A program made the translations under genes and the position numbers. From Escherichia coli (GTDB lineage: Bacteria > Pseudomonadota > Gammaproteobacteria > Enterobacterales > Enterobacteriaceae), in assembly GCF_044647545.1 (NCBI RefSeq), contig NZ_CP172818.1: a stretch of DNA of 64,000 nt; one strand, given 5' to 3'. The notes below the pieces were generated by a model. The model made no database searches and had not been told where the DNA came from. It saw only the letters and a program-made list of their open reading frames with translations. Of this stretch, positions 2,954 through 5,423 are shown in pieces (position 1 is the stretch's first letter; the number at the start of each line of letters is the position of its first letter).

Positions 2954-3050
2954 ATCCAACTCCTTTATCTTCTGCGTTAAAAACGCATGGATACCCGTTG
3001 TGAGTGTTTGTGTTGTTATCTCTGCGACTTTTTGTGCGGTTGTGTTTTGG

Positions 3051-3078
3051 AAAAAAAAAAAAAAAAAAAAAAAAAAAA
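3051..3078. repeat. 28-nt poly(A) homopolymer
   Basis: Direct observation; unusual for enterobacterial intergenic DNA. Confidence 0.9.
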
Positions 3079-3649
3079 TTTGTTAGGTAACATTTAGTTT
3101 GGATAAATGTAAAGGTATTGCTGTTTTATTGTTTGTTTTTGCGAGATGCGCCGCACCATTCCGAAGCAAAATTCTTAAACTGCACCTTTTTGGTGCTACC
3201 GCTGATTTGTGGTGGTGCAACCCGGTTGCGTCGCGGTTGATTTCATTGCTTACACAGTAAATAAAGCAACTTACATGCCAAAAAATACTTAGGGGTGCAT
3301 TAATTACGATTGTAATTTCAGTTTGAAAAAGTCATATTTCGGACAGTGTTAACTTTTCGGTGTGGGAATTTTGCCGGGATGATAACTACACACGGGAAAA
3401 TGTTTTTTACTAGTCTTTTCAAGGAAAAATCACTTTATGTCTGCATCTTCGGTTAAGCCGTTAAATGTTCAATTACCCGCAATAACCCTGATCCTTTTTG
3501 CGCTCTGTGTTGGGATATTTTGTTACCTCGCACAATGGATGAGTTACAAAAAAGTCAATAAATCCGCACTCATCCATCTCGGCGCTAACTTTCTCTCTCT
3601 CACGTTGTCGGGTAAACCCTGGCGTTTATTTAGCAGTGTCTTTTTACAG

Positions 3650-5060
3650 TATTTTTTCTCTTTTATAGATATATATTTTTGCACTCTGGTTAGGGGGGAG
3701 GGGGGGAAGGGAAAATGGGGAAAAGGGGATCCCTATTGTTTGCCTTTTTCTCTCGGGTTTGTGTGGTGAGCACATCGTCTTGTGTTATGCGCGAAAAAAA
3801 AGAGAAAAGATAGATAGGTGGGGGGGCCGGGGGAAAAAAGGAAAAAAAGGGGGGGCGGTAAGAAAAAAACACTTCTTTAGGGGGGAGAACACAATAAAAA
3901 ACAGCGGCGAGGTTTTTTCCTTTTTGGTGGGGTGGCGCTAACGTTGTGTTGCGGCCCGGGAAAAAGAGAAAAAAAAAGCCTCTTCAATGGCGGGGCCGTG
4001 GGTGGGGGGGGGGGTTGGGTGGGGGGGGGCCCGGTTAGGTGGGACAAAACCGTTTCGTAAGGAAGGGCGAGTTTTTTGTGGCTCTTCTTTTCTCCGGCGG
4101 GGTATTTCGGGTGTGCAGCAGCAGAATGATGAAAAATTTTTTTAAAATAGGGGAAAACCGCGTGAAAAGTTTTTTTCCCAGGAGAATAAACAAAAGGAGC
4201 GAAAAAAAAAACAACAATTTAGGGGGGAGGGCAAAGCCCCCACCGAAACATTATCCGCTCCGGTAAGTCGTGAGGAGGCCAGTGGTGATTTACTCGCTGA
4301 GATTGCCGATAACCATGATATGGCGATCAATCGGGATGGTAATACGTTATATGCCGCAAATGAAAACACGAACAGTATTTTTTTTTTCGACCTCGGACAA
4401 AAGAAAATCTCCCATACTTTTATACCGCCCATAGCAAAAAAAAAAAAACACAAAAATTGTGGGGTCTGTAAAAATAAGGGGGTAAGATGGCGGTGGTTAA
4501 GCCCGAAAAAAAGGTTTTTTTATCCACTTTTATTTAAAATGAATGCGTGATCGTTAATAAAGGGGCGGAGGGGGGGGATAATTCAGTCAATAACCACCTG
4601 CACACATCCTGACAGTTTTATCCTCTCGTGGAATGAAAAAAAAGCTGGGTGAATAATGCAACCAATAAAATGTATTTATTCATCTATTGATTTATTAACT
4701 TATAAGGAAGGAGATGCCGCCCGAAAAAAAAAAAACGGGGGGGGGAGGAGGGGAAAAAGACGCCCGTGTGATATTACTCTCCGCGGTAAAAAAACATTGT
4801 TGATACCGCTTGGATTGAGAGAAAGCATATTCGAATCAATAACATCACGAATCATAAAGTAGAATTTCCCACATGTGATGGGTGTGGTGTCGTTGTTGTG
4901 ATGGGAGTATGATAACGAAAAAATAATAGTATTTTTATCGATAATATCGAGGGTATACGAGTAAAAGTTTAAGGATAGAAAAAAAAGAAGCAAAGATCAA
5001 AAGGGAGTGGTGAAACCGTTATCTCTATTAGGTTGAGAGGCAGGAGTGTAAATAGTTGTG
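3650..5060. repeat. Low-complexity purine homopolymer-rich block (G-runs to 11, A-runs to 12), no coherent ORF
   Basis: Runs of G and A interleaved with short AT-rich stretches; ORF-track peptides here are homopolymer translations (K/G/F runs). Confidence 0.8.
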
Positions 5061-5423
5061 TTTTGGTCTGGATGGCAAAGGGATTGTAACCTTTTTTAAT
5101 ATAAAGCCGGGGAAAAGATTGGCGGTTTTTCTCCCCATAACTTTTATTCTTCTCTGTTTTTCAGCGGATGGTAGAAAGATATTTGTTATGGCGAAGAACG
5201 GGTTAATCCAAATGGACAGGACGCGCTCGCTTGATCCGCAGGCAATTATTCGGCATCCCCAATATGGTGATGTGGCTTGTATCCCTGAACCGTAAGAAAA
5301 AGGGGCATGATAATCACGCCCGAAGTAATGAGAAAGTACGTTTTGTTGATACCGGATGCGGTGTTAACGGTTTATTTAGCCTGCAAAAATGATGCAATTT
5401 TGCAGGCCAGCGCATCATTTACA

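Follow-up and report, generated by a model that had tools for sequence, protein, structure and literature searches.

The spacer between gltI and lnt in a 64,000-nucleotide stretch of the Escherichia coli contig NZ_CP172818.1 (the window, with positions counted from its first letter) holds a homopolymer-rich block in place of a readable gene. Comparison with complete genomes points to what lies underneath: an accessory gene, common in E. coli and already known, predicted to encode a rhomboid serine protease of the type of Shigella sonnei Rhom7. The block itself is very probably an artefact at the level of the record, written over an intact Rhom7-type gene, and the organism probably carries that gene undamaged. 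The feature is not real biology, and the gene beneath it is a known one.

The spacer had been singled out in a sequence-only reading of the window for its unusual composition, and it does deviate from the rest of the window in run density, in the fraction of bases held in runs and in GC skew. Of the homopolymers of at least 6 nt, 36 lie in the 2464 nt of the spacer (2960-5423) and 84 in the 61.5 kb outside it; at 14.6 per kb versus 1.4 per kb, the spacer has about 10 times the density found elsewhere. Bases in runs of at least 4 nt account for ~26-27% of positions 3001-5000 and for 2-15% in the other 1-kb bins, and the GC skew of the spacer climbs to +0.3 to +0.55. The particular tracts named in that reading are also there: the A28 tract at 3051-3078 exactly as described, G runs of up to 11 (4004-4014), and sites resembling those of BamHI and SmaI (GGATCC at 3727-3732 and CCCGGG at 3955-3960). 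Dense A runs are likewise present, but the longest measures 13 nt (4436-4448) and not the claimed 12, a length found at 4724-4735. T runs reach 10 nt (4378-4387), and no C runs were found in the homopolymer-rich spacer. Tandem Repeats Finder returned only low-scoring, homopolymer-like rows, no significant tandem or terminal repeats beyond homopolymers were found in the spacer, and no Rfam family matched within it, the only matches being sroC and tRNAs outside.

K-12 MG1655 has an IS5 copy between gltI and lnt, IS5D (insH3), as the sequence-only reading had stated, and its observation that the window lacks both IS5 termini and a transposase frame also holds. The terminus GGAAGGTGCGAA has no match in 2960-5423 with up to 1 mismatch allowed, and no open reading frame (ORF) in the spacer exceeds 110 aa. 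An IS5 remnant was rejected, as no termini were found.

The identity of the region became clear from a megablast comparison with 5426 complete E. coli genomes. The garbled spacer is colinear with a locus annotated as 'rhomboid family intramembrane serine protease', with a best identity of 84%, and its 2464 nt compare with 2457 nt in FDAARGOS_497 (NZ_CP033850), an ST648-type genome in which the spacer contains one coding sequence (CDS) of 1878 nt for a protein of 625 aa (WP_022645354.1). When the intact locus was searched against the same 5426 genomes, 3231 (~60%) matched over at least 80% of its length at 93.7-100% identity, and in all of these the rhomboid gene is intact, single-copy and annotated as a rhomboid-family protease. 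The remaining genomes, K-12 and O157:H7 included, retain only the first 239 nt of the locus. The gltI-lnt spacer is polymorphic in the species, with a Rhom7-type gene in ~60% of complete genomes and IS5D instead in K-12; more finely, three states occur among complete genomes, namely an intact Rhom7-type gene, its absence, and its absence together with IS5D at TTAG, the last in the K-12 lineage. Where contigs encode a Lnt identical to that of the window, the gene is always there: all 30 of the 30 contigs read have an intact 625-aa rhomboid gene adjoining. A strain-specific degenerate insertion, one of the possibilities raised from the sequence, does not agree with these counts, since a 2.4-kb spacer with an intact gene is the usual state. 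The same reading had held that a database match would explain the region; the match explains what the region is, but the damage itself still needs explaining.

The intact protein has the features of a rhomboid protease. Pfam Rhomboid (PF01694) matches residues 59-201 of WP_022645354.1 (L001:1948-3822) with E = 1.4e-28, beta-propeller families of Pfam match at residues ~290-610, and NCBIfam reports repeats of the YVTN-type beta-propeller. Ser133 lies within GASGA and His187 within CHIGG, giving the GxSG motif and the histidine of a rhomboid, while a hydropathy scan places hydrophobic segments at residues 6-38, 68-97, 98-121, 125-147 and 210-236. The predicted product sits in the membrane and combines a rhomboid serine-protease core at its N-terminus with a further transmembrane (TM) helix and a C-terminal beta-propeller.

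The closest described system is Rhom7 of Shigella sonnei (SSON_0610), a rhomboid intramembrane serine protease whose catalytic residues are Ser133 and His187 and which, besides a C-terminal domain, has a seventh TM helix. Rhom7 cleaves subunits of respiratory complexes when they are orphaned, HybA and FdnH among them (Liu et al., EMBO J 2020, PMC7232013). The intact E. coli homologue has its dyad at the same positions, compared here through the residue numbers reported for Rhom7, and it also has a putative extra C-terminal TM helix and a C-terminal domain. Taken together, the Ser133/His187 pair and a probably similar domain architecture argue for the Rhom7-type assignment. The two descriptions differ in that the C-terminal domain is not called a beta-propeller in PMC7232013, whereas a beta-propeller is matched in the E. 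coli homologue. With GlpG, the canonical rhomboid of E. coli, the homologue has PF01694 and the Ser/His dyad chemistry in common, but its scores fall far below the cut-offs of the GlpG models (42.3 bits versus 250 for TIGR04239, 36.6 versus 335 for NF008155), and it lacks the N-terminal cytoplasmic domain of GlpG, carrying instead a beta-propeller of ~330 aa. With respect to IS5D, which sits in the same intergenic region of K-12 MG1655, the target TTAG corresponds to 3083-3086 of the window, 4 nt from the A28 tract; the window has neither the IS5 ends nor the transposase gene, and K-12 has no rhomboid gene at all.

The copy in the window, on the other hand, is wrecked. Its rhomboid frame is open for 110 codons and then breaks into dozens of in-frame stops and frameshifts, and both catalytic codons are destroyed (Ser133 TCC>GCC at 3826-3828, His187 CAC>TTC at 3983-3985), so unlike in Rhom7 no ORF encoding the dyad is present in the window copy. 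To count the errors we aligned it base by base with the ST648-type locus of FDAARGOS_497. Three stretches of the spacer, 2960-3020, 3079-3367 and 5161-5296, are 100% identical to that reference. Between the last two, the error rate per 50-nt bin climbs from 3368 to ~3800, stays high until 4244, drops, rises again from ~4400 and stops at 5160. The extent of ~3650-5060 proposed from the letters differs from that of the damage as measured against the intact homologue, which covers 3368-5160 with a low-error island at 4245-4400. The errors total 345 substitutions, 70 deleted bases and 47 inserted bases, with scattered indels of 1-3 nt. Within the CDS the identity is 76.6% (337 substitutions and 73 indel events), and 63 of the 73 events shift the frame by not being a multiple of 3.

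The spectrum of these errors is what separates them from divergence. CDS substitutions fall evenly on the three codon positions (114/109/114, chi-square p = 0.93). Transitions and transversions over 3079-5423 stand at 127:218, a ratio (Ts:Tv) of 0.58, and in the same interval C is lost 130 times and gained 33 times while A is gained 131 times. Most tellingly, in 236 of the 337 CDS substitutions (70%) the new base equals a neighbouring base of the reference, where 167.5 +/- 8.2 would be expected (z = 8.3) and the maximum across 5000 simulations was 194. A natural pair of alleles served as control: ST648 and ATCC 8739 differ at 85 sites, distributed 20/13/52 over the codon positions, with a Ts:Tv of 51:34, zero indels and an open frame. 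None of the signs of natural divergence, whether a third-position excess, transitions outnumbering transversions or proportionally diverged flanks, was found for the window copy. Of the 85 sites that discriminate the two alleles, 69 carry the ST648 base in the window and 6 that of ATCC 8739, which shows that the copy is the ST648 allele with noise added. The differences from the intact allele can be judged not evolutionary because of the even codon positions, the Ts:Tv of 0.58, the 73 indel events, the neighbour-copying and the loss of C with gain of A. The spectrum fits no known mutational process. Its properties, together with an onset that is gradual on the left and an end that is abrupt on the right, are those of a degrading read-out or consensus, not of mutation. 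A 38-mer from the garbled sequence had 0 matches in GTDB representative genomes and JGI metagenomes, and an exact look-up of the truncated 110-aa ORF found it not on record.

The flanks give the sharpest contrast. Positions 1-3020 are identical to FDAARGOS_497; 5424-12900 are 100.0% identical to FDAARGOS_497, MS6198, ECONIH1 and other ST648-type genomes; 13651-45374 are 99.997% identical to FDAARGOS_497 with one 1-nt indel; and 53394-62186 show zero substitutions and one 4-nt indel against it. Overall, ~51.6 kb of flanks without a single substitution lie beside 1.8 kb at ~75% identity, and a contrast of this kind comes from no ordinary evolutionary process.

The damage is not confined to the rhomboid gene. 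Between tRNA-Met (metT) and asnB there is another garbled patch, which replaces part of the gene for a 145-aa hypothetical protein (WP_000943487.1 in FDAARGOS_497). It starts with G drop-out, passes into A49-T-A8 (a homopolymer scan places the A49 at 13588-13636), and perfect identity returns from 13651. In a three-way alignment the borders of this patch, on both sides, fall within 3 nt of a 431-nt segment that is absent from K-12 MG1655, the K-12 deletion being flanked by TGGCC direct repeats; the rhomboid gene, for its part, lies wholly inside a K-12-absent segment (3229-5429). Two small differences from FDAARGOS_497 were also seen, a 1-nt deletion in an A run of the asnB-nagD intergenic region at 15664 and the loss of four bases, AAGG, where phrB ends (3' end, 55354). 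They are the only two others, and both sit at K-12 structural breakpoints. By alignment, the damage in the window is associated with such breakpoints.

The window also has two larger joins. It matches FDAARGOS_497 up to 62186 and then continues with the fimbrial genes ybgO-ybgP of K-12 type, starting exactly where the homology between ST648 and K-12 ends; the abrB side of this junction is ST648-identical and ~97% identical to K-12, while 62500-64000 has 0 mismatches to K-12 MG1655. The close relatives FDAARGOS_497 and LR-62-2 have a GntR/RraA/UxaA/TRAP island in place of ybgO-ybgP, and nothing, no rhs element, between ybfA and ybgA. In the window, this latter interval, the K-12 rhsC site, holds an 8-kb rhs/ISAs1 island (45374-53394). 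Its 5.5-kb core (45479-51030, a 1394-aa Rhs protein with downstream sequence) is 100% identical to an Rhs element found at another locus, rpmE-metJ, in genomes whose Rhs protein of 1394 aa is the same, and the 105 nt upstream of the core together with the ISAs1-like right part (~52900-53394) are K-12-like with many small deletions. The island could be natural, with gene conversion, or part of a composite artefact. Neither its upstream junction nor the ybgO junction occurs in any of the 5426 complete genomes (0/5426). On this evidence the window does not seem to be a faithful copy of one natural chromosome.

As for how such a record could arise, an ST648-type rhomboid allele would have been overwritten by a non-biological noise process in which a base was mostly replaced by a copy of its neighbour, producing homopolymers, while C was lost, A was gained, indels of 1-3 nt accumulated and the sequence collapsed into poly-A in places. 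The association with structural differences between K-12 and ST648 suggests a K-12-like guide or a second K-12-like strain: a faulty consensus step, or poor data from a single pass or at low coverage, may have supplied the segments that the guide lacked, or else, with a second K-12-like strain in the data, segments without a K-12 counterpart may have been reconstructed badly. Candidate sources would be bases called from the unresolved tails of traces, flows out of phase, greedy extension where coverage was poor, or a consensus that went wrong over two structural haplotypes. Known low-quality consensus and base-calling artefacts, such as smeared homopolymers and the filling of unresolved joins with poly-A or poly-N, have several traits in common with the window: substitutions that copy a neighbour, inflated homopolymers, the drop-out of particular bases, and a decay on one side that gives way abruptly to perfect sequence, between flanks that are themselves perfect. 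It differs from simple read noise in that substitutions dominate and that the errors are tied to K-12 structural breakpoints.

Several single causes were tried and rejected. Runs of N converted to A might cover the A28 and A49 tracts, but not the G and T runs or the T inside A49/A8. Indel-dominated long-read noise fits poorly, as substitutions dominate and length is preserved. A misjoin driven by Rhs repeats was rejected as the cause of the garbled spacer because the rhomboid locus is single-copy. For the same reason, with a median of 1 place per genome, only part of the suggestion of a mis-assembled or poorly polished repeat survives: poorly determined sequence, yes; a repeat, no.

The artefact reading has a wider variant, about which our judgement is evenly divided: that the whole window is a computational composite, assembled with K-12 as a guide or from mixed strains, or else produced by software that regenerated or imputed sequence. 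The garbled blocks would then be more than reads of low quality, namely reconstructions that failed where a path of K-12 type and one of ST648 type part. What speaks for it is that every difference from FDAARGOS_497 falls at a K-12 breakpoint (the A28/IS5D target, 3229-5429, 13469-13650, 15664 and 55354), that ybgO-ybgP is K-12-identical from the exact end of homology, and that the rhs island occupies the K-12 rhsC site with a core identical to the rpmE-metJ Rhs element of other strains. It is also favoured by the lack of an rhs element at ybfA-ybgA in FDAARGOS_497 and LR-62-2 and by the junctions, which are unique among the genomes compared. Other observations pull the opposite way. An insertion of 2.2 kb that is foreign to K-12 and yet correct in length could not be present in a plain K-12-mapped consensus; moreover, IS5D was not retained, and the sequence upstream of rhsC is not K-12-identical. 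The K-12 identity of ybgOP is not diagnostic because it is common, at >=99%, to 1909 genomes, and identical Rhs cores within one genome can come from gene conversion. As a full explanation, a plain K-12-mapped consensus was rejected, the core being only 96-98% K-12-identical, with no IS5D and with a full-length non-K-12 insertion.

A biological origin would require an error-prone, slippage-like process of localised hypermutation or erosion, confined to ~2 kb, that wrecked the Rhom7-type gene and a second accessory gene in vivo. The garbled sequence is, after all, what the window shows, and two accessory genes are damaged while core genes are spared. We consider this most improbable. A divergence of 20-40% with neighbour-copying, a Ts:Tv of 0.58, loss of C and poly-A beside a perfect ~51.6 kb is not the product of any bacterial process known. 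Diversity-generating retroelements act on A only, over short stretches (~100 nt), and deaminases yield transitions only, so neither fits. The one-sided ramp and reset, with the tie to K-12 breakpoints, lack biological sense, and the garbled version was found in 0 of the 5426 genomes. It should be said that this explanation is set aside by implausibility only, not by data. A shade less probable still is that garbled DNA, rich in homopolymers and depleted in C, is physically in the cell, two accessory genes having been rewritten, in a chromosome unchanged elsewhere, by an unknown process such as targeted slippage-prone hypermutation or patch repair with a polymerase of very low fidelity.

Hardly any weight falls on a divergent allele or old pseudogene recombined from a distant lineage. 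Natural alleles of the locus do differ by up to ~6%, but the window copy stands at 76.6% identity, against 93.7-100% in nature; it shows no third-position bias and 63 frameshifting indel events, unlike the natural control, and it keeps the ST648 base at 69 of the 85 informative sites, with interspersed patches 100% identical to ST648. The codon-position, Ts:Tv, indel and allele-site tests refute this origin. Equally negligible is a foreign, contaminant or novel mobile insertion at the K-12 IS5 site, which the composition, unusual for enterobacteria, and the IS5D of K-12 at this place might suggest and which the sequence-only reading had listed as a chimeric or contaminant insertion, but which is refuted by the base-for-base colinearity with the native locus at almost equal length and the absence of IS5 ends, there being in addition no significant repeats beyond homopolymers and no Rfam family, a locus native in 60% of E. 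coli genomes and the ST648 allele at the discriminating sites.

Some observations weigh against the record-level artefact that we favour. We inferred it from the sequence alone, and no single technology or pipeline fits all the details: the errors are dominated by substitutions and preserve length, unlike typical PacBio or Oxford Nanopore Technologies (ONT) noise. The rhomboid errors start ~140 nt after K-12 homology ends (3368 versus 3228), the region upstream of rhsC (45374-45479) is not identical to K-12 and does not resemble ST648 either, and the window does not retain the IS5D of K-12. A sister lineage not yet sampled could in principle carry the rhs island and ybgOP naturally. That the garbled string was missing from the collections searched is weak evidence for an artefact, the source record perhaps lying outside them.

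The value of the feature is mainly as a quality flag for the record. Gene callers run on the garbled stretch would produce spurious small ORFs or a false Rhom7-type pseudogene, although the gene is almost certainly intact in the lineage, and composition-based scans would mark the stretch as foreign DNA; the advice from the sequence-only reading that the spacer should not be annotated as genes is well founded. As the record appears composite, comparative and pan-genome conclusions drawn from it need checking against the reads.

Table 1. Coordinates of the damaged gltI-lnt spacer, its neighbours and the second patch in the window.
Feature	Position	Strand	Comparison or note
gltI, glutamate/aspartate ABC transporter binding protein, intact	2045..2953	-	Identical to FDAARGOS_497 gltI
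First small lesion, gltI upstream region: four single-base deletions (three A, one T)	3021..3050		FDAARGOS_497 alignment
A28 tract	3051..3078		Absent from all homologous loci; its right end lies 4 nt before TTAG (3083-3086)
Clean intergenic/promoter stretch upstream of the rhomboid gene	3079..3367	+	100% identity to ST648-type genomes
Corrupted 625-aa Rhom7-type CDS	3437..5295	+	Colinear with L001:1948-3825 (WP_022645354.1)
Error block 1, rhomboid catalytic core	3368..4244	+	Differences ~5% rising to 25-40% per 50 nt, then an abrupt fall
Low-error island between the error blocks	4245..4400	+	~3% differences
Error block 2	4401..5160	+	20-45% differences per 50 nt, abrupt end at 5160
Clean stretch	5161..5296		100% identical to reference
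Small lesion, rhomboid-lnt intergenic: 1 A and 3 C deleted, 1 substitution	5297..5330		
lnt, apolipoprotein N-acyltransferase, intact	5424..6965	-	5424-12900 100.0% identical to ST648-type genomes
Second garbled patch, 182 nt for ~430 nt of a hypothetical-protein gene	13469..13650		Alignment to FDAARGOS_497

Among the neighbouring RNA genes, the small RNA sroC was matched at the 3' end of gltI (1887-2049, 172.6 bits), and the seven-tRNA cluster at 12517-13217 (Gln, Gln, Met, Gln, Gln, Leu, Met) is intact and ordinary.

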